A stretch of DNA of 64,000 nt from Escherichia phage phiWec181: sequence record LC739534.1, one strand, 5' to 3'. Of the stretch, positions 8,597 to 27,612 are shown in pieces (positions within the stretch are counted from its first letter, which is position 1; the number at the start of each line of letters is the position of its first letter). Made by a program: the position numbers and the translations under genes. Below the pieces are notes generated by a model. That model did not search any database. It was not told where the DNA came from and worked only from the letters and a program-made list of their open reading frames with translations.

Positions 8597-8605
8597 GATG
8601 TACCC

Positions 8606-10111: not shown

Positions 10112-10125
10112 GTTGTGTCTCTCTT

Positions 10126-10230: not shown

Positions 10231-10232
10231 GA

Positions 10233-10581: not shown

Positions 10582-10593
10582 GATTTGTCTCAT

Positions 10594-10665: not shown

Positions 10666-10823
10666 CGAAAAAACTTTTTGATCTGGTTTGCTGTTAGGCG
10701 CATATCTGCTTTGAGCGTTGCCAGGCGATAAGCTTTACCCTTGATCAGTTTATGGTGTCCGGTGCCGTTGCCGATGATAACATCGATTTCACACAATACG
10801 CGGGAAGCATCAATCTTTTTCAT
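10641..10823 (-). CDS. hypothetical protein (60 aa)
   Basis: ATG at 10823 with AAAGGTAA RBS. Confidence 0.5.
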   Translation of the reverse strand: MKKIDASRVLCEIDVIIGNGTGHHKLIKGKAYRLATLKADMRLTANQIKKFFRPLLTTAK

Positions 10824-10905
10824 GTTGTTACCTTTCGTGTTATGGGGCGCTTGTCGCCCCCTGTCTGATAAAGATAATCCCTTTCGGGATATCTGTCAAC
10901 TATTT
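10824..10905 (-). promoter_or_regulatory. promoter + 5'-UTR hairpin cassette (GGGGCGCTTGTCGCCCC)
   Basis: TTGACA -35 and hairpin. Confidence 0.5.
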
Positions 10906-11091
10906 TTATTGTACGGTGTGGCGATCGCTGTATTCAGCGTAAAACTCACATCCATCGTCACGGCTATCAAGTTTAACGATGTACCCGCTATTCCAACGTT
11001 CAACTGATACTACCGGATAATACTTCCCGTTAAGGATATTTTTCACCAGGTCGCCTTTTACCAGTTCTTTCGTTTTCTTGTAAGTAGTCAT
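10906..11091 (-). CDS. hypothetical protein (61 aa)
   Basis: ATG at 11091 downstream of cassette (ORF-track start 11172 runs through the promoter). Confidence 0.5.
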   Translation of the reverse strand: MTTYKKTKELVKGDLVKNILNGKYYPVVSVERWNSGYIVKLDSRDDGCEFYAEYSDRHTVQ

Positions 11092-11175
11092 GATGTTTTC
11101 TCTTCTGTTTTGCGGTGGACCGTTCCGCCGCCCTATGTAATAAACTATACGCGCCAACGTTCCAGGCGTCAAGTA
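11092..11175 (-). promoter_or_regulatory. promoter + 5'-UTR hairpin cassette (GGCGGCGGAACGGTCCACCGC)
   Basis: TTGACG, 17 nt, TATAGT, hairpin, GA-rich RBS. Confidence 0.5.
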
Positions 11176-11289
11176 TATTTTTAAAATTATTTTCTACAAC
11201 GTAAAACGCCCCAGCATAAGCCAGGGCGCACTAATTAAATCAGGTAGGGGATTGCATTGCCTTACACCTTTTAGGCTGTTAGCTGGCGA

Positions 11290-11517
11290 TTAGTAGCGTA
11301 GGATGTTTACACGCTCATCCCGCCCCAAGATATCTTCATATCTGTTTCCCCTTCCTTCGTACCAGATGATCACGGTGTCAGGATCAAACGGATTGTTTTC
11401 GATAGCCGTTACCTTACAAAAATCATAAAACGGGAACGGATAAACGCCAACCTGTAAACGCGCCCGATCTCCTGGGCGAATGGTAGCGGCACGATCTGCA
11501 ATGACATTGTTATACAT
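11290..11517 (-). CDS. hypothetical protein (75 aa)
   Basis: ATG at 11517 with AAGGGG RBS. Confidence 0.5.
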   Translation of the reverse strand: MYNNVIADRAATIRPGDRARLQVGVYPFPFYDFCKVTAIENNPFDPDTVIIWYEGRGNRYEDILGRDERVNILRY

Positions 11518-11527
11518 AGTAAGCCCC

Positions 11528-11806
11528 TTAACGATTATAAACATTGTGGATGGCATCGAAAGCAAGCCGACCATAAGCCGCCAAATCGGGATTGATCCAG
11601 GCGTTATCTAACATCGTTTCAAGGACTGTGGAATCATCGTATAAAGCATCATAAAAATCTGCACGGATGATCGTTTCAATATCGTCCGGTGTTAGTTCCC
11701 TGTTAAGGTTGCAAACCGCTAAAACGTCCACCAATAATTTCCAATCTTGCAAATTAGTGGTTAATACTGTTTTCATTTCTTCGGTTGTGAGTTTAACGAT
11801 GGTCAT
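11528..11806 (-). CDS. hypothetical protein (92 aa)
   Basis: ATG at 11806; cassette upstream. Confidence 0.55.
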   Translation of the reverse strand: MTIVKLTTEEMKTVLTTNLQDWKLLVDVLAVCNLNRELTPDDIETIIRADFYDALYDDSTVLETMLDNAWINPDLAAYGRLAFDAIHNVYNR

Positions 11807-11883
11807 GATTTTATCTCTCTGTTAGGCGGGGCGCTTGTCGCCCCTATGTGATACACTTTATCAGATTGGTTGGGCTTGTCAAA
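11807..11883 (-). promoter_or_regulatory. promoter + 5'-UTR hairpin cassette (GGGGCGCTTGTCGCCCC)
   Basis: TTGACA -35 and hairpin. Confidence 0.5.
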
Positions 11884-11994
11884 CTATTTTTTCTTTTTCT
11901 TTGCTTCCAACCGTCTAAGGTTACGGCTTGACTTATTGCGCAAGGCGCTTAGATCGTCGTACCCTTTCCATGCTTGCATATCTTTCGGATTCAT
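11884..11994 (-). CDS. small basic protein (36 aa)
   Basis: ATG at 11994 with AAGGGGG RBS; K/R-rich. Confidence 0.35.
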   Translation of the reverse strand: MNPKDMQAWKGYDDLSALRNKSSRNLRRLEAKKKKK

Positions 11995-12004
11995 GTTAGC
12001 CCCC

Positions 12005-12211
12005 TTAACGCGTTGCGTAAATAATATGACTTGCCGGACTACTGCAAACCAGGTTAAGCGGCTTGCTGTTATATTGCATCTTGTCGGCTTGTTTGCTTGC
12101 TGCGATGATTCCATCTATTACACGTTGCAAACTAACCTTTACCGCCTTTTTTGCCAACCGTTGACGCTTTACCAGTGCCTGGATCTTTTTCTTGTCTGCG
12201 TTGCTTAACAT
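12005..12211 (-). CDS. basic protein (68 aa)
   Basis: ATG at 12211 with AAGGGCG RBS. Confidence 0.5.
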   Translation of the reverse strand: MLSNADKKKIQALVKRQRLAKKAVKVSLQRVIDGIIAASKQADKMQYNSKPLNLVCSSPASHIIYATR

Positions 12212-12220
12212 GGTGCGCCC

Positions 12221-12400
12221 TTACTTGTTAGCCGGATTGTATGCCAGGATCGCGCCGCTTGCTTTCACGCTTTCATCTTCATAGTTGCGCAGATCGTTTT
12301 CTGTAAGATTGAGCGCGATCACTTCCTCGATCTCAATGCCAGTGGCAAGGGCGATCTCTTTAATGATGTTTGATGATCTGATAACGTTTACTGTTTTCAT
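12221..12400 (-). CDS. hypothetical protein (59 aa)
   Basis: ATG at 12400 with AAGGTG RBS. Confidence 0.45.
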   Translation of the reverse strand: MKTVNVIRSSNIIKEIALATGIEIEEVIALNLTENDLRNYEDESVKASGAILAYNPANK

Positions 12401-12410
12401 GGTGTGCACC

Positions 12411-12530
12411 TTATAAGATGATTGATAAGATAGTGATAACGAAAGCGATAACACCAACGGCGATCGTAGTCTTACGCCCTTCGGATACTGCCGGATTCTC
12501 TACCGTGTATTCTACTGTGTATTTGTTCAT
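12411..12530 (-). CDS. small peptide with C-terminal transmembrane segment (39 aa)
   Basis: Below ORF-track cutoff; cassette upstream; hydrophobic C-terminus. Confidence 0.4.
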   Translation of the reverse strand: MNKYTVEYTVENPAVSEGRKTTIAVGVIAFVITILSIIL

Positions 12531-12629
12531 TGTGTTATCCTCTCGCTTGCTTTGAGAACTATTCCCGCCGCCCTATGAATTAAATATACACTATCCCAAA
12601 ATGATTGCAAGCCTTTTTCTAAATTATTT
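12531..12629 (-). promoter_or_regulatory. promoter + 5'-UTR hairpin cassette (GC hairpin variant)
   Basis: Hairpin and promoter hexamers between genes. Confidence 0.45.
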
Positions 12630-12914
12630 TTATGCAGTAAACAGACCATCATTTACAACGGCGGCGATGATCTCCCGTGCCATTGATTCAGGGAACGGGG
12701 CGCTATAGTCCTGGCTTGTCTCGTCGCTGTCTGTTACCCAATGATAAGCCAACGAGTAAAAGCCTTTACTCCCTGTTTTCAGTGAAACGATGATCACTCG
12801 GTTAAGTCCATCGGTAAACGTTGCCGTTAATGTGTTATCATCTTGCGTCATGTTGGACAAGTAAGCGGCATCATTAACCAGGGAAAACAGTAGCACCGTG
12901 TTAGCTTTAACCAT
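12630..12914 (-). CDS. hypothetical protein (94 aa)
   Basis: ATG at 12914 with GAGGATC RBS; ORF-track start at 12944 is an ATG inside the cassette hairpin. Confidence 0.5.
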   Translation of the reverse strand: MVKANTVLLFSLVNDAAYLSNMTQDDNTLTATFTDGLNRVIIVSLKTGSKGFYSLAYHWVTDSDETSQDYSAPFPESMAREIIAAVVNDGLFTA

Positions 12915-12944
12915 GATTTGATCCTCAAACGGGCGCGGCACCAT

Positions 12945-13015
12945 TGCCGCCCTACGTAATACACTTTACCTTATTTCTTCCAAAAAGCAAGTTTATTTGC
13001 AATTGGTGACAAATA
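12945..13015 (-). promoter_or_regulatory. promoter + 5'-UTR hairpin cassette (GCGGCACCATTGCCGC)
   Basis: -35 TTGCTT lies inside the last codons of upstream gene. Confidence 0.5.
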
Positions 13016-13171
13016 ACGTTTACCCGCGTAAAACAGTACAGCGACACTAACCACGGCGGCGATCTCATGCATAGCCGACGGGAAACGAGTATCATAATAA
13101 GATCCAATAATAGCAATAGCGGCAACGGCTGCAACGTCGATAATGATTTTTTCTTGTTTTGCGGTGATCAT
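12971..13171 (-). CDS. small membrane protein (66 aa)
   Basis: Two hydrophobic segments; ATG at 13171. Confidence 0.55.
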   Translation of the reverse strand: MITAKQEKIIIDVAAVAAIAIIGSYYDTRFPSAMHEIAAVVSVAVLFYAGKRYLSPIANKLAFWKK

Positions 13172-13259
13172 AATATTTACCTTTTTGTATGGTGGGGGGA
13201 ACTATTCCCCGCCCTGATGTAATACAGTTTAACAGATCCGGTTATAGTGTCAACCACTT
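13172..13259 (-). promoter_or_regulatory. promoter + 5'-UTR hairpin cassette (GGGGGGAACTATTCCCCGCC)
   Basis: TTGACA -35 and hairpin. Confidence 0.5.
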
Positions 13260-13445
13260 TTAAAGATATTTTATACTGATAACATTTTCCGGTTTAACCT
13301 GGTTGTGATAAGCATCAATGTAAATCAAACCATCGTTAGAAACGCCCAGGATCACGCCTTGCGCAATAAAACCGTATCGGTCGCGGTAACGTGCCGCCAC
13401 TTTGTTCGCTGCGTTGTAGGCTGTTTTAATCTCGTTTAAGGTCAT
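13260..13445 (-). CDS. hypothetical protein (61 aa)
   Basis: ATG at 13445 with GAGAGG RBS. Confidence 0.5.
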   Translation of the reverse strand: MTLNEIKTAYNAANKVAARYRDRYGFIAQGVILGVSNDGLIYIDAYHNQVKPENVISIKYL

Positions 13446-13469
13446 GTGCTGTTATCCTCTCGTTAGATA

Positions 13470-13500
13470 TAAGAAAGGGCGCTATTTGCGCCCTTGATTT
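13470..13500 (-). terminator. candidate intrinsic terminator (GGGCGC-N5-GCGCCC)
   Basis: Hairpin 13476-13494 followed on minus strand by TTTCTT. Confidence 0.45.
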
Positions 13501-13503
13501 GTT

Positions 13504-13650
13504 TTAGTCTTCCAGGTCCATCCATGCACGTTTCTCGGTGCGGTCGCGCTTAGTTTTGTTGCGCTTGTCGCCCTTGCGGATCACTTCTTCATTCCACGCT
13601 GCGCGTGTTTTAGAAGATTGGATTTTTTCGGCGCGATTAGATGTATTCAT
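13504..13650 (-). CDS. small basic protein (48 aa)
   Basis: Below ORF-track cutoff; ATG at 13650 with cassette upstream; K/R-rich. Confidence 0.4.
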   Translation of the reverse strand: MNTSNRAEKIQSSKTRAAWNEEVIRKGDKRNKTKRDRTEKRAWMDLED

Positions 13651-13748
13651 GATGTTTCCTCTTTTTAGTTGTGAGCGGCACCATTGCCGCCCTACGTGTT
13701 TTAATTTACTTTATTGTTTGATGCCTGTCAACTACTTTTAAAAACTTT
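13651..13748 (-). promoter_or_regulatory. promoter + 5'-UTR hairpin cassette (GCGGCACCATTGCCGC)
   Basis: TTGACA -35 and hairpin. Confidence 0.5.
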
Positions 13749-14102
13749 TTATTCGTGGGAAAGTGTAAGGATCACACCTGCAATATATAACCAATAGTTT
13801 TCCCTTTCTTTCTGGATCTTGTTTTCGCTACTACGCTCGTTAATGTACCCCCAGGATGTTAACAACCGATCTACTTCCCAATACTCGAAAGCTATATTAA
13901 TATTTGACGGTAAACCTTGTAACCATGATGCTATTGCTCTGATAATGTTATGATCGTAACGTTTTTGATTATCGGTGTACCAATATTCAGATTTAAAACA
14001 GCGCATCAATTCCGCGATCTTCTCTTTCTCTTCTGTGATGCCATACTCGCTATAATCAATTGAGGCCAGAATATAAAGTTTAATTGCATTTTGTGCTTTC
14101 AT
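13749..14102 (-). CDS. hypothetical protein (117 aa)
   Basis: ATG at 14102; cassette upstream. Confidence 0.6.
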   Translation of the reverse strand: MKAQNAIKLYILASIDYSEYGITEEKEKIAELMRCFKSEYWYTDNQKRYDHNIIRAIASWLQGLPSNINIAFEYWEVDRLLTSWGYINERSSENKIQKERENYWLYIAGVILTLSHE

Positions 14103-14179
14103 GGTGTCTCTCTTCTGTTGTGAGCGGCACCATTGCCGCCCTATGTGTTACATCTTACCGGATTTTTAAAACTTGTCAA
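14103..14179 (-). promoter_or_regulatory. promoter + 5'-UTR hairpin cassette (GCGGCA-CCAT-TGCCGC)
   Basis: -35 TTGACA (+ strand tgtcaa 14174-14179), 16 nt, -10 TAAGAT (14152-14157), hairpin 14124-14139. Confidence 0.6.
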
Positions 14180-14402
14180 TCATTTTTCTACTATCATTTG
14201 ATAACCTGTTTCAAGGTTAGTAAACACCGTGATCCCGTCCTGGCGTTCACTCATAAGCAAGCAAGGCGCTAACATCCTTCCTACTTCCTTGCACTCGTTA
14301 TAAGCGGCGGTAATGTCTCCCGCTGCTTTGTCTTCTGTGGTGAATGTATCGTTTACGTAAACTTTACCAGCGACAACGGCGACAATAGCAAAAGTGATCA
14401 TG
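14180..14402 (-). CDS. hypothetical protein (74 aa)
   Basis: ATG at 14402 with AAGAGGAAAAC RBS (ORF-track start 14473 judged over-extended). Confidence 0.5.
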
Positions 14403-14479
14403 ATGTTTTCCTCTTTGTGTTTTTCGTTTTGATTAGTTGATAATACAGCAATTCGCAGATTAGTCTTTAGCAATTCATG

Positions 14480-14698
14480 CTATTTACTCACAACAGTATC
14501 GAAAACAAATTTTTCTTTGTTGTCGAAGCTAACATATCCGATTCGACCACGCAAGCCGCCAGTAGTGCCGTATTCGTAACCATCAAGGCCTTTAACCTTC
14601 CAATCCGTACCCATTAAAACCGCATTATATTTCTGACCAACTACAAACGCGCCACCAGTTGATTCAATGCAAACAACTTTAATTTTACGGATTGCCAT
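14480..14698 (-). CDS. hypothetical protein (72 aa)
   Basis: ATG at 14698; promoter TTGACT-TATAAT with hairpin upstream. Confidence 0.5.
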   Translation of the reverse strand: MAIRKIKVVCIESTGGAFVVGQKYNAVLMGTDWKVKGLDGYEYGTTGGLRGRIGYVSFDNKEKFVFDTVVSK

Positions 14699-14776
14699 TT
14701 TCTTTCTCTCTTTGTGGTGATTGGTTTCTCTTCTCTATAGCGCCCATTATAAGGCGCTATAACGAAAAGTCAACGA

Positions 14777-14944
14777 TTATTTTTTACGGCTTAAGGTGCC
14801 CAAGTTATCAGCGTGACGCAGACCAGGGAAGATCCAAGCGCCGGATTCATCTTTTACAGGTGCCTTAACACTTGCGCCCAGGTTGGCGGCGTTAACTTTA
14901 CGTGCTACGTTGCGAGCGGCTTCACGGGTAGTAAAAGTAATCAT
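14777..14944 (-). CDS. small basic protein (55 aa)
   Basis: Below ORF-track cutoff; ATG at 14944 with GAGAAGAGGAAAAC leader; cassette upstream. Confidence 0.45.
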   Translation of the reverse strand: MITFTTREAARNVARKVNAANLGASVKAPVKDESGAWIFPGLRHADNLGTLSRKK

Positions 14945-15016
14945 GATGTTTTCCTCTTCTCTTTGTTAGGCGGTGGACCATTCCGCCGCCTTGATGTAAT
15001 ACAGTTTACTCTATTT
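14945..15016 (-). promoter_or_regulatory. promoter + 5'-UTR hairpin cassette (GGCGGCGGAATGGTCCACCGCC)
   Basis: TTGCAA, 16 nt, TAAACT, hairpin. Confidence 0.5.
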
Positions 15017-15175
15017 TTATTTCTTTGCAACTACTTTTATATTTTCTTTCTTTGCCTCTTCCACCTGGTCCGCCCACTGCTTACCCCACGTTTGAGCGTT
15101 ATAGTGATATTGACAAAGAGCAACACCACGTTTTAAACCAGCGATAGACTTTTTACCACATTGACAAGTTTTCAT
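15017..15175 (-). CDS. small Cys-containing protein (52 aa, possible zinc-binding)
   Basis: Below ORF-track cutoff; translation MKTCQCGKK...LCQYHY has spaced Cys/His. Confidence 0.4.
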   Translation of the reverse strand: MKTCQCGKKSIAGLKRGVALCQYHYNAQTWGKQWADQVEEAKKENIKVVAKK

Positions 15176-15186
15176 TTTGTGATCCC

Positions 15187-15399
15187 TTAGTTGATGATAG
15201 TCAGTGTAAAATTATAATCACCATTCTTATATAACACCATATTACCGAAGGTGCCGACTCGACGCATATCCATACGGATACCTATAACATCTTTAACGTC
15301 TTTAATGTTTTTAACGCCCGTGATATCTTTATTAAAATATTCCTCGTCTGAAAATAAAACTTGACTTGCATTTTTTAACAGTGTGCGGATATTAGCCAT
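15187..15399 (-). CDS. hypothetical protein (70 aa)
   Basis: ATG at 15399; cassette upstream. Confidence 0.5.
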   Translation of the reverse strand: MANIRTLLKNASQVLFSDEEYFNKDITGVKNIKDVKDVIGIRMDMRRVGTFGNMVLYKNGDYNFTLTIIN

Positions 15400-15488
15400 C
15401 GTGATAATCTCTCTTCTGTTGTGAGCGGCACCATTGCCGCCCTACGTAATACAGTTTACTCTTTTTCTTTCCGGTGTCAACAATCTTT
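15400..15488 (-). promoter_or_regulatory. promoter + 5'-UTR hairpin cassette (GCGGCACCATTGCCGC)
   Basis: TTGACA -35 and hairpin. Confidence 0.5.
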
Positions 15489-15716
15489 TTAGATTAATTC
15501 GTCCAGGCATAACAGGCGATCAACGTTGAGATCGGTCAGGCTGATGGTTGGCACCTGATAAGATTCGATGTACTCGACGCTTGCATATTCCCCAAAGTTA
15601 GCAATAGCCCACTTATTCAAGATCTCACATACATCATTAATCTTTTTGTTTGTTACAACTGCAATAACCTGGGAAGTGCCAACGGTGCCGGATACGCGAA
15701 CAATATTGATAGCCAT
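15489..15716 (-). CDS. hypothetical protein (75 aa)
   Basis: ATG at 15716; cassette upstream. Confidence 0.5.
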   Translation of the reverse strand: MAINIVRVSGTVGTSQVIAVVTNKKINDVCEILNKWAIANFGEYASVEYIESYQVPTISLTDLNVDRLLCLDELI

Positions 15717-15795
15717 GATTTTTCTCTCTTCTGTTAGGCGGGGCGCTTGTCGCCCCTATGTGATACATCTTACACTAATTTAAAACTTTGTCAAA
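15717..15795 (-). promoter_or_regulatory. promoter + 5'-UTR hairpin cassette (GGGGCGCTTGTCGCCCC)
   Basis: TTGACA, 16 nt, TAAGAT, hairpin, AGAAGAGAG RBS. Confidence 0.55.
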
Positions 15796-15889
15796 TTATT
15801 TTCTATTTCTTCCGTAATAGCCCAATTTATGATCTAAGCTAAAACGTTTTGTGAGATAGGTCGAACGATGTTTCATTTTTATGTCTCCT

Positions 15890-16129
15890 TTACATTCCAA
15901 CCATAGCGGCGCGGATCGCGGTAGTGCTATACTTGAAACCGTCTGGAGTTTTATCTTGTCCAGTCTGTTCCAGAAAGAGCATCATATCACGCGCCGCATC
16001 GTTACGGTTAGAATTATAACTAATAAATTCTTTCGCGGTGCGGTATAATGATTCATCGTTATTAATCCAAAGGCTTACATTCCAATGAGTTTTGTTTTTG
16101 TGACCTAAGAACATTTTTGATTTAGCCAT
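15890..16129 (-). CDS. hypothetical protein (79 aa)
   Basis: ATG at 16129; cassette upstream. Confidence 0.5.
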   Translation of the reverse strand: MAKSKMFLGHKNKTHWNVSLWINNDESLYRTAKEFISYNSNRNDAARDMMLFLEQTGQDKTPDGFKYSTTAIRAAMVGM

Positions 16130-16218
16130 GATGTTAATCTCTTTTTCAGTGAGGCGGGAACTATTCCCGCGCCCTATGTAATACAGTTTACTCTTTTTAT
16201 TCGTGCTGTCAATGCTTT
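16130..16218 (-). promoter_or_regulatory. promoter + 5'-UTR hairpin cassette (GCGGGAACTATTCCCGC)
   Basis: TTGACA -35 and hairpin. Confidence 0.5.
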
Positions 16219-16572
16219 TTATAAATCTTTTTTACGTTTTACATCGCTTGCATGACTGTATACAGCGATCCCATTATCACGACAAAAACGGGTAAGGTAT
16301 GATCCGCGTGAAAACTCTTTCCCTTCCAGGTCAACAACCTTGCTAAATTCTTCCAGGGCAACGGTATCAAAATGATCACCATAACCATATTGAAACGGCA
16401 CGTTAACAACTTCAATCAATTTACCGCCGATCTCAACGTCCACGCTTAAAGAAAAATATGTGTTACCGTAGGACTGTTGAAACCAGCGACGGGCGCTAAT
16501 GTGAACGGCTTCAATCTCACCAATTTTAAATTGAGTGTTACCCAGGATCGCAACGTTGATATTTTTAGCCAT
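16219..16572 (-). CDS. hypothetical protein (117 aa)
   Basis: ATG at 16572; cassette upstream. Confidence 0.55.
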   Translation of the reverse strand: MAKNINVAILGNTQFKIGEIEAVHISARRWFQQSYGNTYFSLSVDVEIGGKLIEVVNVPFQYGYGDHFDTVALEEFSKVVDLEGKEFSRGSYLTRFCRDNGIAVYSHASDVKRKKDL

Positions 16573-16668
16573 GATTTTTTCTCTCTTTTTGGTTAGTGGG
16601 AAGTGTTCCCGATAAAAGTTATTATGCTTATACTATCGTTTTTTGTCAATAGTATAAGACTAAAACTT
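16573..16668 (-). promoter_or_regulatory. promoter + 5'-UTR hairpin cassette (GGGAACACTTCCC variant)
   Basis: TTGACA -35 and divergent hairpin sequence. Confidence 0.45.
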
Positions 16669-16848
16669 TTAACGATAATCATCGTAGGCTTTATTAACCT
16701 GGCGAATATAACATTCGAAAGCGAGATCAATAGAATCATATTCCCGCACATAATCCCCGTAAGAAACTACATACACACCTTTTTGATCCTCAAACGTCAT
16801 GATGATAGAATCCAGGCCGATGATTTCAGTTTTAGCGATGATAGTCAT
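16669..16848 (-). CDS. hypothetical protein (59 aa)
   Basis: Below ORF-track cutoff; ATG at 16848; cassette upstream. Confidence 0.45.
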   Translation of the reverse strand: MTIIAKTEIIGLDSIIMTFEDQKGVYVVSYGDYVREYDSIDLAFECYIRQVNKAYDDYR

Positions 16849-16936
16849 AATAATAACCTTTTTATTGTTGGCGGCACCATTGCCGCCCTACGTGATAAAC
16901 TATACCAGAATTTTAAACAGTGTCAAACGTTTTTTC
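16849..16936 (-). promoter_or_regulatory. promoter + 5'-UTR hairpin cassette (GGCGGCACCATTGCCGCC)
   Basis: TTGACA -35 and hairpin. Confidence 0.5.
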
Positions 16937-17182
16937 TTAGTTTGCGAAATATGGCGCGGCGGCTGATGCCGTTAATCTCCAAGTGATTTGGCTATCGATC
17001 AAGTATTCTTCATTCTTGATCCGCACGGTATCAATCGAGAAGTTACTGAAAGGCTTGCTCTTGATTTTACGAACAACCGTTACACGACGGTTATTTTTCA
17101 TCTCTTTTAACTGAATCCAGGCGTAACCTTTTTCATTGACAAATATTTCATTGTGATTGGTGATAGATGATAAGTGTTTCAT
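16937..17182 (-). CDS. hypothetical protein (81 aa)
   Basis: ATG at 17182; cassette upstream. Confidence 0.5.
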   Translation of the reverse strand: MKHLSSITNHNEIFVNEKGYAWIQLKEMKNNRRVTVVRKIKSKPFSNFSIDTVRIKNEEYLIDSQITWRLTASAAAPYFAN

Positions 17183-17273
17183 GATTTTTCTCTCTTCTGT
17201 TTTGAGCGGTGGACCATTCCGCCGCCCTATGTGTTACATCTTACTACTTTTTTAAACATTGTCAAGGATATTT
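17183..17273 (-). promoter_or_regulatory. promoter + 5'-UTR hairpin cassette (GGCGGCGGAATGGTCCACCGC)
   Basis: TTGACA -35 and hairpin. Confidence 0.5.
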
Positions 17274-17555
17274 TTAACTATATGATCCACATCGTTCGCA
17301 GTAGTGATCATCGTCGTCATCTGCTACCTGGCTGATAAAATGATCTACCTTTGCTTTCAAATTATTATAATTGCTTTCTACTTCCTGTAGTCGTCGTTGG
17401 TAGTATTCCAGGGCTTGCACATAGGCCATTTGTTCGGTTTTAGCTTGCATAGCTAAATTCATGCCACGCGTTTCATCGTATAACCAATAACCATCATTAC
17501 ATTCACTAATAGATAGTGTAGGGCTTAGTTTTTCGTGACGGATAACCTTGCTCAT
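17274..17555 (-). CDS. hypothetical protein (93 aa) with C-terminal CxxC
   Basis: ATG at 17555 with AAGGGGCAC RBS. Confidence 0.5.
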   Translation of the reverse strand: MSKVIRHEKLSPTLSISECNDGYWLYDETRGMNLAMQAKTEQMAYVQALEYYQRRLQEVESNYNNLKAKVDHFISQVADDDDDHYCERCGSYS

Positions 17556-17565
17556 AGTGTGCCCC

Positions 17566-17676
17566 TTACTTCAAAATGATTGTTGTGATAACTGCTACGG
17601 TGATCCAGAATGGAACAACTAAGATAATAGCGTTAATCGTTCCAACTGTCAAACTATTTTCTTTCTTGATCATCAT
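17566..17676 (-). CDS. small hydrophobic peptide (36 aa)
   Basis: ATG at 17676 with AAGGAAAAC RBS; hydrophobic translation; the 77-aa ORF-track call starts inside the cassette hairpin. Confidence 0.4.
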   Translation of the reverse strand: MMIKKENSLTVGTINAIILVVPFWITVAVITTIILK

Positions 17677-17683
17677 GTTTTCC

Positions 17684-17767
17684 TTACAGTGTCCAAAGAA
17701 TGATTTCAAGTGCAGCACGGAAACCAGGAATAAAATTGATTGCAAAAAACAGGGAAGTAGTAAACAT
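17684..17767 (-). CDS. small hydrophobic peptide (27 aa)
   Basis: ATG at 17767 directly downstream of cassette; hydrophobic. Confidence 0.3.
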   Translation of the reverse strand: MFTTSLFFAINFIPGFRAALEIILWTL

Positions 17768-17772
17768 TTTTC

Positions 17773-17841
17773 TATCCTTTCAGTTGTGAGCGGCACCATT
17801 GCCGCCTGATGAGTTAACTATAAGGGATCACGTTTTACCTG
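17773..17841 (-). promoter_or_regulatory. promoter + 5'-UTR hairpin cassette (GCGGCACCATTGCCGC)
   Basis: TTGACA -35 and hairpin. Confidence 0.5.
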
Positions 17842-18399
17842 TCAACCTAAATCATCAAAATAAAGATAATTTTTTTCGGCTTCTTTCTTCTCTTCCTGTG
17901 ATGCCTCAAAGACTGGGAGAAAGTGATCAAAGGCGACGCACTCAACCGCTTGATCGTCTTCCTCTTCCTGGTCTTCCTCCTGGGCTATGGCTGCAATTTT
18001 GGCTAATTTCCTTTCAGCCTGGATCAGCTTACCATCTAAAACGCTTTTAGCGGTGCTGTACGCCGTCCAAGTGATGCGCTTACTTTCCAGCGCGGCATCA
18101 AGCGCCGCTATCTTGCTGGGGTATTCATCCAGGACACGAAAAGCCGGATCTACCTTGTACAGCGGATTATCTTTCGCGCCGTCGCTATCATCTGCGGCGC
18201 TTGCAATGTCAGCGTTACCATTCGCCAGCCAACCAGGGCGATCGCTGCGTGTTTTGGTATTCCCATGACTACGCGCCGATCTGTTGCCTACTTGCTCGCC
18301 ACTATAGCCAGGAGCATGATCGATCATGTCGTCCGGTATAATGCGCGGATCATTAACGTCATGTTTTACCCAGGACTGGATCACATATTCGCGCCCCAT
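17842..18399 (-). CDS. hypothetical protein (185 aa) with acidic C-terminus
   Basis: ATG at 18399 with AAAGGGGTG RBS; no cassette of its own, so likely in operon with two genes upstream. Confidence 0.6.
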   Translation of the reverse strand: MGREYVIQSWVKHDVNDPRIIPDDMIDHAPGYSGEQVGNRSARSHGNTKTRSDRPGWLANGNADIASAADDSDGAKDNPLYKVDPAFRVLDEYPSKIAALDAALESKRITWTAYSTAKSVLDGKLIQAERKLAKIAAIAQEEDQEEEDDQAVECVAFDHFLPVFEASQEEKKEAEKNYLYFDDLG

Positions 18400-18659
18400 T
18401 ATACACCCCTTTTAACAATCATTTCACACACAAGAAATAAGCTGGCGGAATCACGGCAAGGATAGAAAGATGTACGATAATCTCTCACCCCTGCTTTTAT
18501 GATCTCCGTGGTTTTACCTGATAGCACATTGTAAATAGTGTAACTTGTCGGACTGTTTTTATATACCTTGCCAGGGTAGATCATAACATAACGAGCAAGG
18601 TTATAAAATTCCTCGTTACGAAAGGCTATGATCTTCCCGCATACCTTAAGAAAGTGCAC
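18399..18659 (-). CDS. hypothetical protein (86 aa)
   Basis: GTG start at 18659 with AAGGGGG RBS. Confidence 0.45.
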   Translation of the reverse strand: MHFLKVCGKIIAFRNEEFYNLARYVMIYPGKVYKNSPTSYTIYNVLSGKTTEIIKAGVRDYRTSFYPCRDSASLFLVCEMIVKRGV

Positions 18660-18669
18660 GTTAGCCCCC

Positions 18670-18942
18670 TTACAGCAAAAAGTTTACTTGTCTTGCTGTT
18701 AATGTAGTATCAACCATTTTCGGGCTTTTATAATTGACAAAACGCGCGGTTTTTTCAATAGCGAAGCCGAGATAATCTTGTTTGTTGAAATTACATTCTT
18801 TCTTAAATGTTTCCCGTGCAATGGCGATCGCTGCGTCCAGGGATAAACGCCCGTCAATATTGATATTTGCGAAAGATCCGCCACCGCTCATAGGTTTACC
18901 AGTGGTGCCCGTTACGATCATTGTTGCGCTATATGATGCCAT
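18670..18942 (-). CDS. hypothetical protein (90 aa)
   Basis: ATG at 18942 directly downstream of cassette. Confidence 0.5.
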   Translation of the reverse strand: MASYSATMIVTGTTGKPMSGGGSFANINIDGRLSLDAAIAIARETFKKECNFNKQDYLGFAIEKTARFVNYKSPKMVDTTLTARQVNFLL

Positions 18943-19032
18943 GATGATAATCTCTCTTAGTTGTGAGCGGTGGACCATTCCGCCGCTCTACGTGATACAT
19001 CTTATCAGGTTGTTGCCTGTTGTCAATACTTT
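18943..19032 (-). promoter_or_regulatory. promoter + 5'-UTR hairpin cassette (GCGGTGGACCATTCCGCCGC)
   Basis: TTGACA -35 and hairpin. Confidence 0.5.
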
Positions 19033-19771: not shown

Positions 19772-19774
19772 TCT

Positions 19775-19802
19775 TGACAAGCCCAGGGATCGGGCTTATA
19801 CT
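19775..19802 (+). promoter_or_regulatory. near-consensus sigma70 promoter (TTGACA, 16 nt, TATACT) with no downstream ORF
   Basis: Hexamers read directly; no plus-strand ORF over 30 aa for the next 6 kb. Confidence 0.55.
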
Positions 19803-20029
19803 GTTTTACATACAGAAGAGGAAGCGCCACCCCACGGCGTAAAGGCGGGGCTAACATACCAGGGGCACTGGTTGGAAGGTCGATCGCCGGGAGGCTGGGC
19901 GCTATATATTTGTAAAGAAATGTAAAGATAAAATAATCGCTTGCTTTCCTGGCTGGATCTGTTATTCTTATTACATGGCGAGGGGACACGGGAGCGCGAG
20001 ACAATCACCGGACCTGCCCGTCATTCTGC

Positions 20030-20150
20030 AAATGAGAAAAATTCTCATTTGCAAATAAGACTCATTCGCATTTAATAATTGAATGAGAATCATTCTCATT
20101 CTCATTCGTATTTCGATTTTAAGTGAGAATAATTCTCATTTCGGTAATTT
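20030..20150. repeat. three palindromic TGAGAAT-N-ATTCTCA sites (operator-like)
   Basis: TGAGAAAAATTCTCA, ATGAGAATCATTCTCAT, GTGAGAATAATTCTCAT read directly. Confidence 0.6.
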
Positions 20151-20151
20151 T

Positions 20152-20354
20152 CACGTAAACTTTAGAATTTGCTTTTCAACTTTCACTTTTGTAAAAGCAA
20201 AAAAACTTTAAATACCTGGTGCGCGCGACTTTTTAAAAAATTTTTCTCGGTTTTTTGCTTTGAAATCTGGCCCACCAATTTGAGATAGTGTACGTAAACT
20301 TTAGAATTTGGTTTTGGATTCTCACTTTTGTAAACTCGTAAAAAGTTTAAATAA
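20152..20354. repeat. two ~60 bp direct repeats (ACGTAAACTTTAGAATTTG...TTTGTAAA...TTTAAATA), iteron-like
   Basis: Copies at ~20152-20214 and ~20291-20354, ~85% identical, AT-rich; TTGAGATA repeated three times nearby. Confidence 0.6.
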
Positions 20355-20481
20355 TTGTAGGGATTTTGAGATAGTTTGCTTGTAAGGTTTGAGATAATCC
20401 TTCCCGAAGATGTTACGCAGCCTACAGCCTACCTGAATGCTCGTCTAACGAGATTAACTCTAAAAGATGAGTGTTGGTGTA

Positions 20482-20522
20482 GCTAAAGAGAAAAGGCTCT
20501 CTACGGTGTTGTAGGAGCCTTA
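20482..20522 (-). terminator. intrinsic terminator of minus-strand operon
   Basis: Hairpin AAGGCTC...GAGCCTT followed on minus strand by TTCTCTTT, 3' of gene 20592-21119. Confidence 0.5.
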
Positions 20523-20591
20523 TTTCTGTGGCACAAAGTTGACGTATTCTTTTTAAAAACGAATTTTTTCAAAATATCACGAATATCGCCT

Positions 20592-21330: not shown

Positions 21331-21673
21331 AAACTGCGTCTGCGTCGATGAGTTTGTGTTTGTTGTTCCGCATGTAGTCTAAGATAAGTAGACGTTTATT
21401 GTATCTGGAGAGATTATGACCCTCTTTTCCGCCATAGTCAAAATATTTTGCAAGACTTTTACACTCAAACAAAATCAGTTCGGGAGTTTCTTCACATTGG
21501 TCTGTCTGGTACACTTGACGGATGATCATGTATACGTCATCGTCTTCCGCTAAGTGCTCTACTGGTCCACACCCAGCAGGAATAAATTCATAGTCCCATC
21601 GAATCAGATGTTTCTCTACTGCTTCAAAGAAATCCATTTTTTCGCTACGCATGATCTGAACATCAATTAACAT
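21308..21673 (-). CDS. hypothetical protein (121 aa)
   Basis: ORF, operon context. Confidence 0.55.
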   Translation of the reverse strand: MLIDVQIMRSEKMDFFEAVEKHLIRWDYEFIPAGCGPVEHLAEDDDVYMIIRQVYQTDQCEETPELILFECKSLAKYFDYGGKEGHNLSRYNKRLLILDYMRNNKHKLIDADAVYGYWWMD

Positions 21674-22679
21674 AATTTTCCTCCTGTCTCATTATTCCAC
21701 CTGCTTGGTTGATAGCACTTAAGACAACAGCCAAATCCTCACGCAGGAAGGTTTCACTATGACCGTCTTTCATGTGCAACGCTTCCACACAGCCGATAGA
21801 CGGTAGGATCTGATCAGTCTTAGATTTTAGCTTACTCTCTAACGCCCTGCAAGCCTGGTAGGACGGCAGATCAAACAATGCTACACGTTGCATAAAGTAG
21901 TTATTATTTGCATTCTGAATCTTCAAACGTATATCACTATCCTTTGCAATCCCCAGCTTGAAAGCTCCCGTATCTTCTCCATACTCATCAAGGATAACGT
22001 TGATGTAAAATTCTTGCTGTGATCTGCCTTTACATTCAGAACAACCATTCCCACTTAGATACTTATTAGGTGTTATCGTTTGTTCTCCGTGCTCACTACA
22101 TAAATATTTAAACTTAGACATGGTTCCCACCTTACCAACGAACCCTATAAACTGGTCCCCTCGTTCCTGGCAAGCTTCAGTCATACGGAAAATCCATTGC
22201 GCAGGAGTGTAACGATGGTTTTTAGAACAACGGCAAGCAAGCAGCCCATCTCTAAGACTGCTCCTCGTTACTTCAAACCTACCGTTACACACGCCAGCCT
22301 TTACATATTCGTCATGAGAACATACGGAACACTTAACTATCCAATAAGCCGCCCATCCTTTACTATCTAATCTATCACTACGATAATACTCACGCGGAAC
22401 GTTATCAGGACACGCTTTGTTAAAGGTTGTGATATGGATTGAATCATCAATTAAACATGTTTGCCTTATTGCTTCCACCCTACAACCTTTACAACCACTT
22501 CCTATTTTAGCATTATCTATAGAAGTTGTTCTCCATTCCCCATGTATAGAACATTCACAGGTTAGTTTAGTGCGTGCCCCCTTCCATTCACCATGCCACC
22601 CCGTAATGGTCCACGGTTTATCCTGGTAAGCTTGTTCTATTTCTTCCTGATATTCCTCCCAACTTTTAGCCCTCATCAT
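21663..22679 (-). CDS. zinc-ribbon repeat protein with C-terminal T5orf172/GIY-YIG-like domain (338 aa)
   Basis: Multiple CxxC/CxC pairs; C-terminal FKLGIAKDSDIRLKIQ...KDGHSETF shared with paralog 26247-27200. Confidence 0.55.
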   Translation of the reverse strand: MMRAKSWEEYQEEIEQAYQDKPWTITGWHGEWKGARTKLTCECSIHGEWRTTSIDNAKIGSGCKGCRVEAIRQTCLIDDSIHITTFNKACPDNVPREYYRSDRLDSKGWAAYWIVKCSVCSHDEYVKAGVCNGRFEVTRSSLRDGLLACRCSKNHRYTPAQWIFRMTEACQERGDQFIGFVGKVGTMSKFKYLCSEHGEQTITPNKYLSGNGCSECKGRSQQEFYINVILDEYGEDTGAFKLGIAKDSDIRLKIQNANNNYFMQRVALFDLPSYQACRALESKLKSKTDQILPSIGCVEALHMKDGHSETFLREDLAVVLSAINQAGGIMRQEENYVN

Positions 22680-24718: not shown

Positions 24719-25086
24719 TACATACTCCCGTAGTCTGGTTCAATATGGTGTTTACGACAAATAGCATCCCAACGTTCACTACCGAAACCCCGTCCGTGTA
24801 GTGCATCGTATGCGAAATGTTCTGCCAACCACAATACTACACCATCTGGTTCAGTGTCAAGCGGAATTCGAAATTCTCGATCATAACGCATACGGAGAAC
24901 AAACTCATTACCGTCTTCCAGGAGATGCATGTGACTTTTCGCTCGTGATGCCAAGTCAAAGAAAGGTGCCTCGTCTTTCCAAACCTGGCGCTCAACCTCA
25001 ATACCGTGATCAACTACCAGGGTAGCAATCACATCTTTCATTTCTTTACTAAACATATTCCCTCCTAATAATGTTTTAAAGTCCAC
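24718..25086 (-). CDS. hypothetical protein (122 aa)
   Basis: ORF, operon context. Confidence 0.55.
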   Translation of the reverse strand: MDFKTLLGGNMFSKEMKDVIATLVVDHGIEVERQVWKDEAPFFDLASRAKSHMHLLEDGNEFVLRMRYDREFRIPLDTEPDGVVLWLAEHFAYDALHGRGFGSERWDAICRKHHIEPDYGSM

Positions 25087-25310
25087 TCAATACCTGACGG
25101 GTAACTGCCTCGACAAATCTTACCATCGGAATGCCAGTTAATGCTATCAGGGAAAGTATGATTTAGTGTTTTTTCATGAGGAAGCCATTCTGTAGGCTTC
25201 TCTCCACCATTGATCCATACAAAACCTTCGTCTTCCAGTAAACCTAAAGCAAACTCCATCTCTTCTGCATCGTGAACCGTTACTTTCTGACCTTTCTGTA
25301 ATTTAATCAT
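25065..25310 (-). CDS. hypothetical protein (81 aa)
   Basis: ORF, operon context. Confidence 0.5.
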   Translation of the reverse strand: MIKLQKGQKVTVHDAEEMEFALGLLEDEGFVWINGGEKPTEWLPHEKTLNHTFPDSINWHSDGKICRGSYPSGIEWTLKHY

Positions 25311-25319
25311 ATTACCCCC

Positions 25320-25505
25320 TTAACCAATTAGTTGGACTGCCTTGCAGATGTAAATCCAAACAGGACTAAGCATAAGTGCTACAATACTGGGGTAAATCCC
25401 TTTTGGCTCTATCTCAATTATTGATAAGATTAAGGTGACAGCACTGATAAACATATAAGCTCCCAAGAAAGCCAGCGTCAAGAATTCAGACATAATTAGC
25501 TCCAC
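25320..25505 (-). CDS. small membrane protein (61 aa)
   Basis: Two hydrophobic helices in translation. Confidence 0.5.
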   Translation of the reverse strand: MELIMSEFLTLAFLGAYMFISAVTLILSIIEIEPKGIYPSIVALMLSPVWIYICKAVQLIG

Positions 25506-25828
25506 AAGTTATGAAAATATTCAGCAAACAGGCAACGACCTTCGATTTTATCCGTTTTGGTCATAACGGATTCAGGTTTAAAACCTTCAATCATTTGATC
25601 AATAATGGATAACCACTCCACTGTAGCTTCCCGCTCCTGCTCTTCTGTTAGTTTACGGTAATCTGACACATATTTAGCCCAAATCTTAGATGGGATAAGG
25701 ATATCCCCTCGTTCCACAATACGTGCCTTGAACGCGTACAGTCCAGCACAGATAATCGCGGAGAACGTATCATCCAGGTCTTGCAGATCTTCTACGCCAA
25801 ATTGTAATTCATCATGGATAATTTTCAT
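25496..25828 (-). CDS. hypothetical protein (110 aa)
   Basis: ORF, operon context. Confidence 0.55.
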   Translation of the reverse strand: MKIIHDELQFGVEDLQDLDDTFSAIICAGLYAFKARIVERGDILIPSKIWAKYVSDYRKLTEEQEREATVEWLSIIDQMIEGFKPESVMTKTDKIEGRCLFAEYFHNLWS

Positions 25829-26112
25829 TTTGTTTCTCCCCGCTCTGCGTCTAATTTCAATAAGAAGGCTGCATACTCTTCCGAACCTTTGTGTAAGAAC
25901 ATACGATAAGAACTCACCAGTTTCTTCGTTGTTGTATAACGCTCCATTCCGCCGACAACCCCTGTACCGAGAGTGTAGAGAACAACACCTTCAACCCCAA
26001 CATGGGTTACGACTTCAACCATGTCCGTGTTATCCCAGTGATATTTAGGGGATACAATAAGATCGCCAACTGCTAATTTGATGTTTGCCGCTTCGTCTTG
26101 TGAATAGTACAT
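25825..26112 (-). CDS. hypothetical protein (95 aa), first gene of minus operon
   Basis: ATG at 26112 with GAGAGGAGAAC RBS; promoter upstream. Confidence 0.55.
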   Translation of the reverse strand: MYYSQDEAANIKLAVGDLIVSPKYHWDNTDMVEVVTHVGVEGVVLYTLGTGVVGGMERYTTTKKLVSSYRMFLHKGSEEYAAFLLKLDAERGETK

Positions 26113-26152
26113 TTTGTTCTCCTCTCACATTAGGACACGTTTTGTGTCGATG

Positions 26153-26187
26153 GGTGTAGATTACGTGAGCACAAAGGGGTTGTCAAC
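26153..26187 (-). promoter_or_regulatory. sigma70-like promoter (TTGACA, 17 nt, TAATCT) for minus operon
   Basis: Read on minus strand; -35 is one arm of TTGTCAA-N7-TTGACAA inverted repeat. Confidence 0.5.
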
Positions 26188-26193
26188 TACTTA

Positions 26194-26222
26194 TTGACAA
26201 AAATTTCTAAACGTTGTAAATT
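26194..26222 (+). promoter_or_regulatory. sigma70-like promoter (TTGACA, 17 nt, TAAATT) for plus block
   Basis: Read directly; back-to-back with the minus promoter. Confidence 0.55.
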
Positions 26223-26246
26223 AAAAACATCTACAAAGGAGGAAAC

Positions 26247-27200
26247 ATGAAATACGAAGATTTTAAACAAATAGTTAAAGACGATGTGGTATTTGAGAAC
26301 TTACAGGAAGGTTGTGAAGTCTTAGGTTGGACAGAAAGAGATAGAAACTTTGCAAAAATATACGTAATACGTTGTAGTGTTTGTGCCAAAGACCCCGAAA
26401 TGTATGGAGATGGTCTTTTTACAGCTACAAAAGGGCGTTTAGTGAAAGGTCAGAAATGTTGCGCGTGCGCTGTATCCTTTAAATACAGTCAAAACCAACA
26501 CCTAATTCTGCTAAACAGGCATTTAAGTGTCGCAGGGTACAGCATAGTTTCTATTGGTGCTTGGGAGTGTTCTAAGACGAGAATAGAGTTTAGTTGTGAG
26601 AATGGACACACGAAGAACAGAACCCTGGCTCAAGCAAAGGTAGTAGAACCTTGTAAACAGTGTCTTGAAGAAGGCTGTACAAAACACAAACAAGATGAGG
26701 CAGAGGCAAAAATTATGAAGATAATAGAAGATAAATGTTTACCTTATGTATTTGTAGGGTGGGATACTTCTTACAAGAATGTAACTTCAAAATTCAACCT
26801 CATCTGTTCGGATCACGGTTTAAAAACAATAAGATACGCTTGTTTCCTAAATGGTCATTTTTGTAACGAGTGTTCTGGTAGAAATTGCCTAAGTCTTTAT
26901 TTATTAGGAGTTTATGATAGAGACTTGTTGGTAGGTTTAAAATTTGGCATCTCTCAGAGTCCAGTAAGAAGGGTTCAACAGTTAAATAAAAGGAACTTAT
27001 TTAAATGTAAAATACTACAGATTTGGACTTTTACATCACATGATCAAGCTGTACGGATGGAAACATTATTAAAGAACACATTGCGAACTGGAATATTTAC
27101 TAAAAGAGAGATGAAAGATGGTCATACAGAAACCACAGAAGTTACTAATTTAGAAACCATAATGGACCTTATGACCTCATCTCATGGATTGGTTAGTTAA
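26247..27200 (+). CDS. zinc-ribbon repeat protein with C-terminal T5orf172/GIY-YIG-like domain (317 aa)
   Basis: RBS AAGGAGGAAAC; Cys pairs; LKFGISQSPVRRVQQL...KDGHTETT, paralog of 21663-22679. Confidence 0.6.
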   Translation: MKYEDFKQIVKDDVVFENLQEGCEVLGWTERDRNFAKIYVIRCSVCAKDPEMYGDGLFTATKGRLVKGQKCCACAVSFKYSQNQHLILLNRHLSVAGYSIVSIGAWECSKTRIEFSCENGHTKNRTLAQAKVVEPCKQCLEEGCTKHKQDEAEAKIMKIIEDKCLPYVFVGWDTSYKNVTSKFNLICSDHGLKTIRYACFLNGHFCNECSGRNCLSLYLLGVYDRDLLVGLKFGISQSPVRRVQQLNKRNLFKCKILQIWTFTSHDQAVRMETLLKNTLRTGIFTKREMKDGHTETTEVTNLETIMDLMTSSHGLVS

Positions 27201-27495
27201 CAAAAACCTTAACATTTCCGATGTTCTTGCTGACTTCTTGTGAGAACATTGAAAGTACCTTGTCAAGCAGTTTTACTAATTCATTTGTAATTTGTTCCTC
27301 TGAACGAGAAGAAGTAAGTACCTTACTCTCACCAACGATGTGCATCACCTTGATAGGAGCATTCAGGATAACATTGTGCTTTTCATCTTCTTCGAAAGAT
27401 GCTAACCACTTCTCATTATTCCCGTGCAAAGCCACGATAACACCAAAACCGTTAATAGTTTGTGAAATGTTCTTAGTTGCTAATGTAATGTTCAT
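27193..27495 (-). CDS. hypothetical protein (100 aa), convergent
   Basis: ATG at 27495 with AGAGAGGTG RBS. Confidence 0.5.
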   Translation of the reverse strand: MNITLATKNISQTINGFGVIVALHGNNEKWLASFEEDEKHNVILNAPIKVMHIVGESKVLTSSRSEEQITNELVKLLDKVLSMFSQEVSKNIGNVKVFVN

Positions 27496-27554
27496 TGTTC
27501 ACCTCTCTTAATAATGTAGGGCTATTGTACACTAAAAATATTTCAGGTCAAGTG

Positions 27555-27582
27555 TTGACAAGCTTTTTGGTTCTGTTATGAT
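27555..27582 (+). promoter_or_regulatory. sigma70-like promoter (TTGACA, 16 nt, TATGAT)
   Basis: Read directly upstream of 27613. Confidence 0.55.
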
Positions 27583-27612
27583 TAGCTCATACTAAATGAG
27601 AGGAGAAAACAA

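Follow-up and report, generated by a model that had tools for sequence, protein, structure and literature searches.

Introduction

The T5orf172 (GIY-YIG superfamily) phage homing endonucleases usually bind DNA through CapR-type zinc fingers (PMC10448857). Free-standing genes of this type, in which an N-terminal CapR is joined to a C-terminal T5orf172-like domain, are known from Vibrio phage ICP1, among others (PMC10448857, PMC8096241). The sole characterised CapR protein binds a -35 element together with upstream sequence and represses transcription, and I-TevI is cited as a homing endonuclease acting as the repressor of its own promoter (PMC8096241). In this study, we analysed a stretch of 64,000 nucleotides of Escherichia phage phiWec181 (sequence record LC739534.1; the whole stretch is hereafter called the window). 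The phage belongs to Phapecoctavirus, Stephanstirmvirinae. The site of interest is a palindrome, TTGTCAA-N7-TTGACAA at 26180-26200, which stands between a Phage tudor-domain gene and an oppositely oriented CapR/T5orf172-type gene. The site is of a known type, a free-standing T5orf172/CapR-type cassette that has a promoter of its own and adjoins an early promoter of the host phage. We consider it likely that the palindrome is the junction of an old promoter and the inserted endonuclease gene with its own promoter, and that both halves have been kept as promoter elements.

The gene at this locus has the domain order of the free-standing T5orf172/CapR genes of ICP1 and others. As with those genes, copies occur several times within genomes, are present or absent at a fixed locus in closely related phages, and lie at a sequence-exchange boundary. 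In contrast to the ICP1-type genes, its nuclease domain is weakly detected (MUG113 below the cut-off), and cleavage and homing are putative here. A further difference is that the cassette sits in a promoter embedded in coding sequence, with a duplicate of that promoter and a replacement gene tail.

The free-standing seg and mob endonuclease genes of phage T4 are mostly co-oriented with the genes around them and are transcribed from middle or late promoters. The locus shares with these genes and with I-TevI a selfish gene, placed in or between conserved phage genes, that has its own promoter, and there is a precedent for an endonuclease that binds its own promoter. Unlike the T4 genes, the gene here is antisense to an early operon and has a consensus sigma-70 promoter, and its autorepression is a candidate only. 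Back-to-back divergent promoters are also known from lambda PR/PRM, with start sites about 82 bp apart, and likewise from Tn10 tetA/tetR. In both pairs, the operators are distinct from the -35 hexamers, and the repressor gene lies within the pair. The present locus resembles them in its predicted divergent sigma-70 promoters with overlapping upstream regions; however, its symmetry consists of the -35 boxes alone, and the only candidate regulator is an endonuclease with CapR domains. Finally, insertion sequences keep or create the expression of adjoining genes through outward-facing or hybrid promoters. Here, too, a mobile element ends in a -35 that faces out toward the downstream host genes, but the outward promoter is a duplicate of a split promoter, and neither a transposase nor terminal inverted repeats are present. 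For rV5-like phages, 'bidirectional promoters', with consensus sigma-70 sequences placed back to back, have been proposed in silico at strand switches (PMC3606486). The conserved switch of the window at 27546-27560 is of that type; the palindrome site does not belong to the conserved switches.

The predicted promoter pair at the palindrome

The palindrome and the two predicted promoters that meet in it are as follows.

26180-26200, no strand assigned: palindrome TTGTCAA-CTACTTA-TTGACAA, with the left arm at 26180-26186, a 7-nt centre, and the right arm at 26194-26200
26194-26222, plus strand: predicted sigma-70-type promoter, TTGACA (26194-26199), 17-nt spacer, TAAATT (26217-26222)
26158-26186, minus strand: predicted sigma-70-type promoter, TTGACA (26186 to 26181), 17-nt spacer, TAATCT (26163 to 26158)

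The sequence agreed with the original prediction, which had described TTGTCAA-N7-TTGACAA with TTGACA-17-TAAATT on the plus strand and TTGACA-17-TAATCT on the minus strand. The palindrome spans the junction of duplicated target DNA, which holds the left arm, and the promoter of the cassette, which holds the right arm. Downstream of the plus promoter, the predicted start at about 26229 is followed by the ribosome-binding site AAGGAGG and an ATG at 26247. Downstream of the minus promoter, the predicted start at about 26151 is followed by the start of the Tudor-domain gene at 26112.

We counted the inverted repeats with perfect 7-bp arms and loops of 0-12 nt and found 90 in the window versus 65 +/- 11 in Markov-1 simulations. 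As a palindrome alone, the site does not stand out from chance. It does so as a pair of promoter boxes; the exact TGTCAA..TTGACA pair is found at this site alone in 64 kb, and the exact 21-nt pattern has one occurrence.

The plus promoter was listed by the consensus scan with 10/12 matches, and its hexamer pair recurs identically at 13731. About 25 TTGACA-N16/17-TAnnnT sites of the window are strand-concordant, and they typically precede a start codon by 50-100 nt; for the minus site this distance is 74 nt and for the plus site 53 nt (-35 to ATG). The minus promoter combines an exact TTGACA and a 17-nt spacer with a TAATCT that has T-12, A-11, and T-7. We built a -10 profile from 23 promoter-like sites of the window phage, on which TAATCT scored 4.6 bits, compared with 4.65 for the ancestral GATAAT described below, and ranked in the top 0.9% of all hexamers. 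With the same profile, only 2 of the 22 wrong-strand TTGACA controls had an equally good -10 at 16-18 nt. Additionally, TAATCT is the -10 of the orthologous strand-switch promoter in phi92.

Insert boundaries and the ancestral promoter

The insert was defined against the uninterrupted allele of IMG/VR contig L004, which shares the backbone of the window. The features at its two ends are listed together with the gene that it carries.

26157-27244, no strand assigned: mobile cassette, 1088 bp
26247-27200, plus strand: free-standing homing-endonuclease-like gene, 317 aa, with CapR repeats and a C-terminal T5orf172/MUG113-like domain
26125-26156, minus strand: stranded remnant of the DUF7325 3' end (..PIDTKRVLM and stop), identified by alignments; 42/44 identical to metagenomic contig L011
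27193-27244, minus strand: replacement C-terminal tail of DUF7325, SQEVSKNIGNVKVFVN and stop, supplied by the cassette; it shares its last 8 nt with the end of the endonuclease gene
27260-27266, minus strand: ancestral -35 TTGACAA (codons L-D-K of DUF7325) at the right junction; direct repeat with 26180-26186

Sequence alignments establish the insertion, its boundaries, the duplication, and the pattern of conservation. On the left, homology stops after GATGGGTG at 26156; on the right, homology to L004 resumes at 27245 with 97.9% identity. Between these points, the cassette takes the place of 8 nt (TGATAATG) that contained the ancestral -10. It was not found in phiWec188 or AV126, and the uninterrupted site in L004 and AV126 consists of the sequence around TTGTCAAGCAG. 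We examined the uninterrupted relatives phiWec188, AV126, phi92, PHB05, Klebsiella phage 05F01, and L004, with Phapecoctavirus and Justusliebigvirus among them. All of them have TTGACA-N17-GA(T/C)AAT on the minus strand in the last DUF7325 codons (L-D-N/K ... F-D-N), 35-75 nt upstream of the next gene; in L004, this embedded promoter reads TTGACA-AGGTACTTTCAATGTTT-GATAAT. The minus promoter of the window stands in the same register as the embedded promoter of these relatives and as the left copy in L011.

The L011 cassette is the most informative. Left of its insert, GATGGGTG-CATTATCAAACATCCGAAGAAGG-TTGTCAA makes up a complete ancestral promoter, TTGACA-17-GATAAT on the minus strand, and the insert is flanked by a 27-nt direct repeat with 23 matches. 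Because the ancestral promoter survives whole in L011, the palindrome's left arm is the -35 of the old promoter, carried on duplicated target DNA, and its right arm is the endonuclease's own -35, which lies at the outermost end of the cassette. Our first model, in which the cassette had brought a new outward promoter, was revised because L011 revealed the left copy as a duplicated ancestral promoter. The window retains of the target repeat the heptamer TTGTCAA alone (26180-26186 and 27260-27266), and no -10 was found for the right-junction copy at 27260-27266. The remnant at 26125-26156 is now non-coding and forms the 5' leader of the Tudor-domain gene. The replacement tail at the other end has 16 residues, and homologous tails are found in L011 (AEEVNNKKNVKVFVN) and in Klebsiella phage FKP3 (..SDVKVYL).

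The window and L011 were then compared element by element. The palindrome of L011 reads TTGTCAA-CCACCGA-TTGACAA, so that the arms match at 14/14 positions and the centre at 4/7. Its plus promoter, TTGACA-17-TAGATT, matches the window at 6/6 positions of the -35, at 11/16 of the spacer, which has the same length, and at 5/6 of the -10 (TAAATT in the window). The minus spacer and -10 match at 8/23 positions, with the same length and with the 17-nt spacing and TAnnnT kept. The endonuclease gene is 75% identical overall and 57.5% identical at third codon positions; at the latter rate, the probability of arms matching at 14/14 is 4e-4. The FKP3 cassette has its own strong promoter, TTGACA-18-TGtTATACT, the counterpart of the plus promoter, and it has no second -35 and no palindrome. 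By this comparison, two real back-to-back promoters are well supported. The claim that the arms are the -35 boxes of two divergent promoters thus gained comparative support on both sides, through ancestral descent for the minus promoter and through conservation in L011 and the FKP3 counterpart for the plus promoter.

Two details of the junctions were set aside. The codon differences at the right junction (GAACATTGAAAGTACC) had been considered as endonuclease-driven recoding or immunity; this was rejected in favour of backbone polymorphism because the uninterrupted L004 shares these codons. The rewritten left spacer of the window has 8/12 matches with its own right junction (GTGAGCACAAAG versus GTGAGAACATTG), which is too weak to interpret.

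The endonuclease gene

The product of 26247-27200 matched Pfam CapR (1.5e-20) in two zinc-finger stretches, which form the N-terminal repeats, and phrog_681 'endonuclease' (5.9e-59) over residues 97-311. The MUG113/T5orf172 match was weak, with E = 0.0016 and 19.4 bits, under the 22.3-bit cut-off. A single phage genome can hold homologues at as many as nine places, often with the annotation endonuclease; the homologues P0003 and P0005 bear DUF723 plus CapR.

At the DNA level, the gene was found in phiWec179 and the identical phiWec186 only among 50,697 phage records, and it is also present in contig L016. A protein search revealed a 74%-identical protein (P0002) on metagenomic contigs L011-L015, whose backbone is AV126-like and in which locus and orientation agree with those in the window. 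In FKP3 (Justusliebigvirus), a 33%-identical endonuclease has the same locus and orientation together with the homologous replacement tail. Most of the 132 phage records that matched the junction are uninterrupted, and some have a different gene of 163 aa there. In IMG/VR, the protein search with DUF7325 gave one locus, the protein search with the endonuclease gave one locus of 25% identity, and the search with the exact 26-mer of the Tudor-gene start gave no match. The gene is thus present or absent at one conserved locus in collinear relatives, with diverged copies on different backbones, and it has the CapR DNA-binding module of T5orf172/GIY-YIG-superfamily homing endonuclease genes. These features point to a CapR/T5orf172-type homing-endonuclease-like mobile gene whose nuclease domain is weakly detected.

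A paralogue lies at 21663-22679 on the minus strand. It encodes 338 aa with CapR (1.1e-26) in 3 stretches and phrog_681 (3.6e-57), and it is co-oriented with its neighbours. This paralogue is not present in phiWec188, which makes it a second mobile insert of the early region.

The Tudor/DUF7325 junction has received other inserts as well. In phiWec188 (L002 3900-4391), the junction carries a minus-strand gene of 163 aa that belongs to phrog_11258, function unknown. Judging by match geometry, phAPEC8, tuntematon, Mt1B1_P17, SKA64, and WPEC1 also have a different insert there. Therefore, the junction is an insertion hot spot.

Gene context and the conserved strand switch

The gene map was taken from the deposited record LC739533.1 (phiWec179), in which window position equals record position minus 74325. 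The following neighbouring features are needed here.

25825-26112, minus strand: Phage tudor-domain gene (Pfam Phage_tudor 1.4e-24), the first gene downstream of the minus promoter
27524-27582, no strand assigned: conserved strand switch with back-to-back promoters, TTGACC-16-TACAAT (minus strand, 27551 to 27524) and TTGACA-16-TATGAT (plus strand, 27555-27582)

In the deposited map, the genes at 1-27495 are all on the minus strand except for two lone plus-strand open reading frames (ORFs), one of which is 26247-27200. The minus-strand DUF7325 gene (27193-27495) comes right after it and overlaps its end by 8 nt. The original prediction had placed the change from minus-strand to plus-strand genes at the palindrome and had spoken of both operons. 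The map does not bear this out, as a single plus-strand gene stands there, the minus strand resumes at 27193-27495, and the conserved switch is at 27496-27612; one of the two supposed operons is a single inserted homing-endonuclease gene. phiWec188 and AV126 do not have the 317-aa ORF, and their strand switch falls between DUF7325 and the plus-strand gene that comes next.

The conserved switch corresponds to the intergenic region 27496-27612, with its -35 part at 27546-27560. Its -35 boxes, GGTCAA-gtg-TTGACA, are separated by a 3-nt gap. It is kept in five phages of two genera (Phapecoctavirus and Justusliebigvirus), including phiWec188, AV126, phi92, and PHB05, and its -10 boxes vary solely within TAnnnT among the phages compared. 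The palindrome site is a secondary switch made by insertion and not one of the conserved switches. No terminator-like site was found in 25000-27500 by the terminator scan, and the Rfam and tRNA scans of the window gave no hits.

Proposed mechanism

We infer promoter activity, start sites, and interference between polymerases from the arrangement described above. An ancestral early sigma-70-type promoter in the last DUF7325 codons would have transcribed the Tudor-domain gene and the minus-strand genes that follow it. A CapR/T5orf172-type gene then inserted there in the opposite orientation, bringing a promoter at its extreme left end and a replacement tail, with about 25 nt of target DNA being duplicated. 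Owing to this duplication, a full copy of the old promoter came to lie on the downstream side, with its -35 at 7 nt from the -35 of the endonuclease promoter. Two opposed TTGACA(A) boxes in this position necessarily spell TTGTCAA-N7-TTGACAA. The palindrome would thus be a junction artefact, retained because each half functions as a promoter element.

The sigma-70 form of the host RNA polymerase would initiate the endonuclease mRNA near 26229 on the plus strand; on the minus strand, it would initiate near 26151 and transcribe the Tudor-domain gene together with the genes that lie beyond it. Transcription that reads through from 27551, the upstream promoter, would now have to traverse 1 kb of the convergently transcribed endonuclease gene, which would be a reason to retain the duplicated promoter. 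The minus promoter probably matters more in the window phage than in its relatives. With about 78 bp between the two predicted starts and with overlapping upstream regions, the polymerases probably influence each other.

Alternative explanations

Several observations weigh against this account. The minus -10, TAATCT, agrees with TATAAT at 3/6 positions and falls under the threshold of a standard consensus scan, and the -10 profile that favours it is partly circular because its training sites were pre-selected for xAnnnT. The CTT-GAC codons are invariant in all lineages, including the orphaned right-hand copies, and the conservation of the embedded promoter in uninterrupted phages is inseparable from protein-coding constraint. 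When the local non-coding identity of 79% was used as the baseline, the probability of arms matching at 14/14 rose to 0.04, which is marginal. The FKP3 cassette is without a downstream-facing promoter, and therefore such a promoter is not indispensable there. For Phapecoctavirus and rV5-like phages, our literature search found predictions only and no study of transcriptomes or start sites, and the promoters of the rV5 genome paper were obtained in silico only (PMC3606486).

The alternative that survives best holds that only the plus promoter works, that the minus TTGACA-17-TAATCT is a decaying relic, and that the downstream minus-strand genes are read through from 27551. The low consensus score of TAATCT and the FKP3 phage, which manages without such a promoter, would fit this explanation. 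The 8/23 identity of the spacer and -10 to L011 is a greater divergence than the neutral proxy (P = 0.02), yet the rewritten 23-nt stretch keeps what a promoter needs, namely the exact -35, the 17-nt spacing, T-12, A-11, and T-7. On the phage profile, TAATCT scores like the ancestral GATAAT, a quality that few control sites reach (2/22). No terminator-like site between 27500 and 25000 would stop the read-through, but it would face 1 kb of convergent transcription from a 10/12 promoter. We regard this alternative as unlikely.

The original prediction had called the palindrome an obvious site for a single dimeric regulator. In the strongest form of this idea, the palindrome would be an operator as well, and a DNA-binding protein would sit on both arms and shut both promoters, the best candidate being the endonuclease acting through its tandem CapR zinc fingers. 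The arms and their 7-nt spacing are conserved between the window and L011 cassettes, but no symmetric base goes past what two -35 boxes supply and the centre varies, with 4/7 matches. Beyond the hexamers, we found one symmetric A only, and an A follows TTGACA in about half of the promoter-like sites of the phage. The dyad symmetry that an operator would have beyond the promoter hexamers was therefore not seen, the centre being asymmetric and variable. Although the adjacent gene encodes two CapR DNA-binding repeats, the binding of the protein to the palindrome is a candidate only. Precedents exist in the CapR repressor that acts at a -35 and in the autorepression of I-TevI (PMC8096241). The insertion site abuts TTGTCAA, so the homing site may include the heptamer; the two arms, however, are of separate origins.

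The geometry also speaks against an operator. Among homologous and analogous sites, L011 alone shares it, by descent, whereas the homologous FKP3 cassette has a single -35 without a palindrome, and the conserved switch has a gap of 3 nt. The half-site centres are 14 bp apart; in our estimation, this departs from the single helical turn that is usual. Within the window, the motif has no second copy. As a regulon motif, the palindrome was tried with <=2 mismatches and rejected; the 5 hits, versus 0.5 expected, owe their excess to the abundance of TTGACA, since the extra hits are direct repeats or degenerate sites and not dyad copies. The sequence gave no sign of a special regulator site at the palindrome, and we consider the operator quite improbable. 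Binding of the endonuclease to the double -35 of the palindrome, which is suggested by analogy, would be at best comparably improbable. A fuller version is likewise improbable; in it, the endonuclease would home to the embedded promoter by reading the -35 heptamer TTGACAA with its tandem CapR zinc fingers, bind the double -35 once the allele is occupied, autorepress its strong early promoter, and brake the neighbouring promoter. If true, this would be a self-regulating selfish gene whose operator was assembled from target and cassette DNA upon insertion.

That the inverted repeat acts as an RNA hairpin on the termination, processing, or stability of read-through transcripts is very improbable: although the 41-nt minus-strand fold reaches -7.0 kcal/mol (z = -2.4), the stem is short and A/U-rich (-6 to -7 kcal/mol) without a U-tract on either strand, the plus-strand fold is not significant (z = -1.35), and both predicted starts lie outside the hairpin, which would thus be in neither primary transcript. 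An intrinsic terminator was rejected, as there is no G+C-rich stem with a U-tract and the terminator scan of 25000-27500 was empty.

Other features of the window

The motif ACRTAGGGCGG has 14 copies, versus 0.65 expected, in window 7898-18993, always on the minus strand (for example, 10267-10277, 13687-13697, and 15437-15447). Most of the copies examined stand a few nt downstream of the -10 in a TTGACA-N16/17-TAAnnT promoter with an A-rich upstream stretch. These sites look like a repeated promoter-plus-leader module before many small early genes. The motif is not present at the plus and minus promoters of the palindrome.

Window 19774-19912, within the minus-strand region, contains an orphan promoter on the plus strand, TTGACA-17-TATACT (11/12), which has an A-rich stretch upstream. 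Behind it come about 95 nt that are GC-rich and have a fold of -36.9 kcal/mol (z = -1.9). The surrounding 19772-20591 has no annotated gene, and the orphan-promoter stretch has no Rfam or tRNA hit; the stretch behind the promoter could be a small non-coding RNA. The same gene-free region contains, at 20020-20110, a long inverted repeat, TGCAAATGAGAAaaaTTCTCATTTGCA, and after it a series of repeated GAGAATCATTCTCATTC units. A further 1.5 kb, at 5188-6731, is without an annotated gene, tRNA, or Rfam hit.

Implications

These findings leave the current understanding of transcription and of homing endonucleases unchanged. For the annotation of therapeutically used rV5-like coliphages, the strand switch at the palindrome would be the scar of a mobile endonuclease gene and not a regulatory hub. 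The window and L011 cassettes would serve as a natural mutagenesis, in which the non-coding promoter copy has kept only the -35, the 17-nt spacing, and a TAnnnT -10. A tidy detail is that the element duplicated the very promoter that it split. For the biology of mobile elements, the locus would be a clean natural example of damage limitation, as the promoter survives as a duplicate and the interrupted gene gets a substitute tail.

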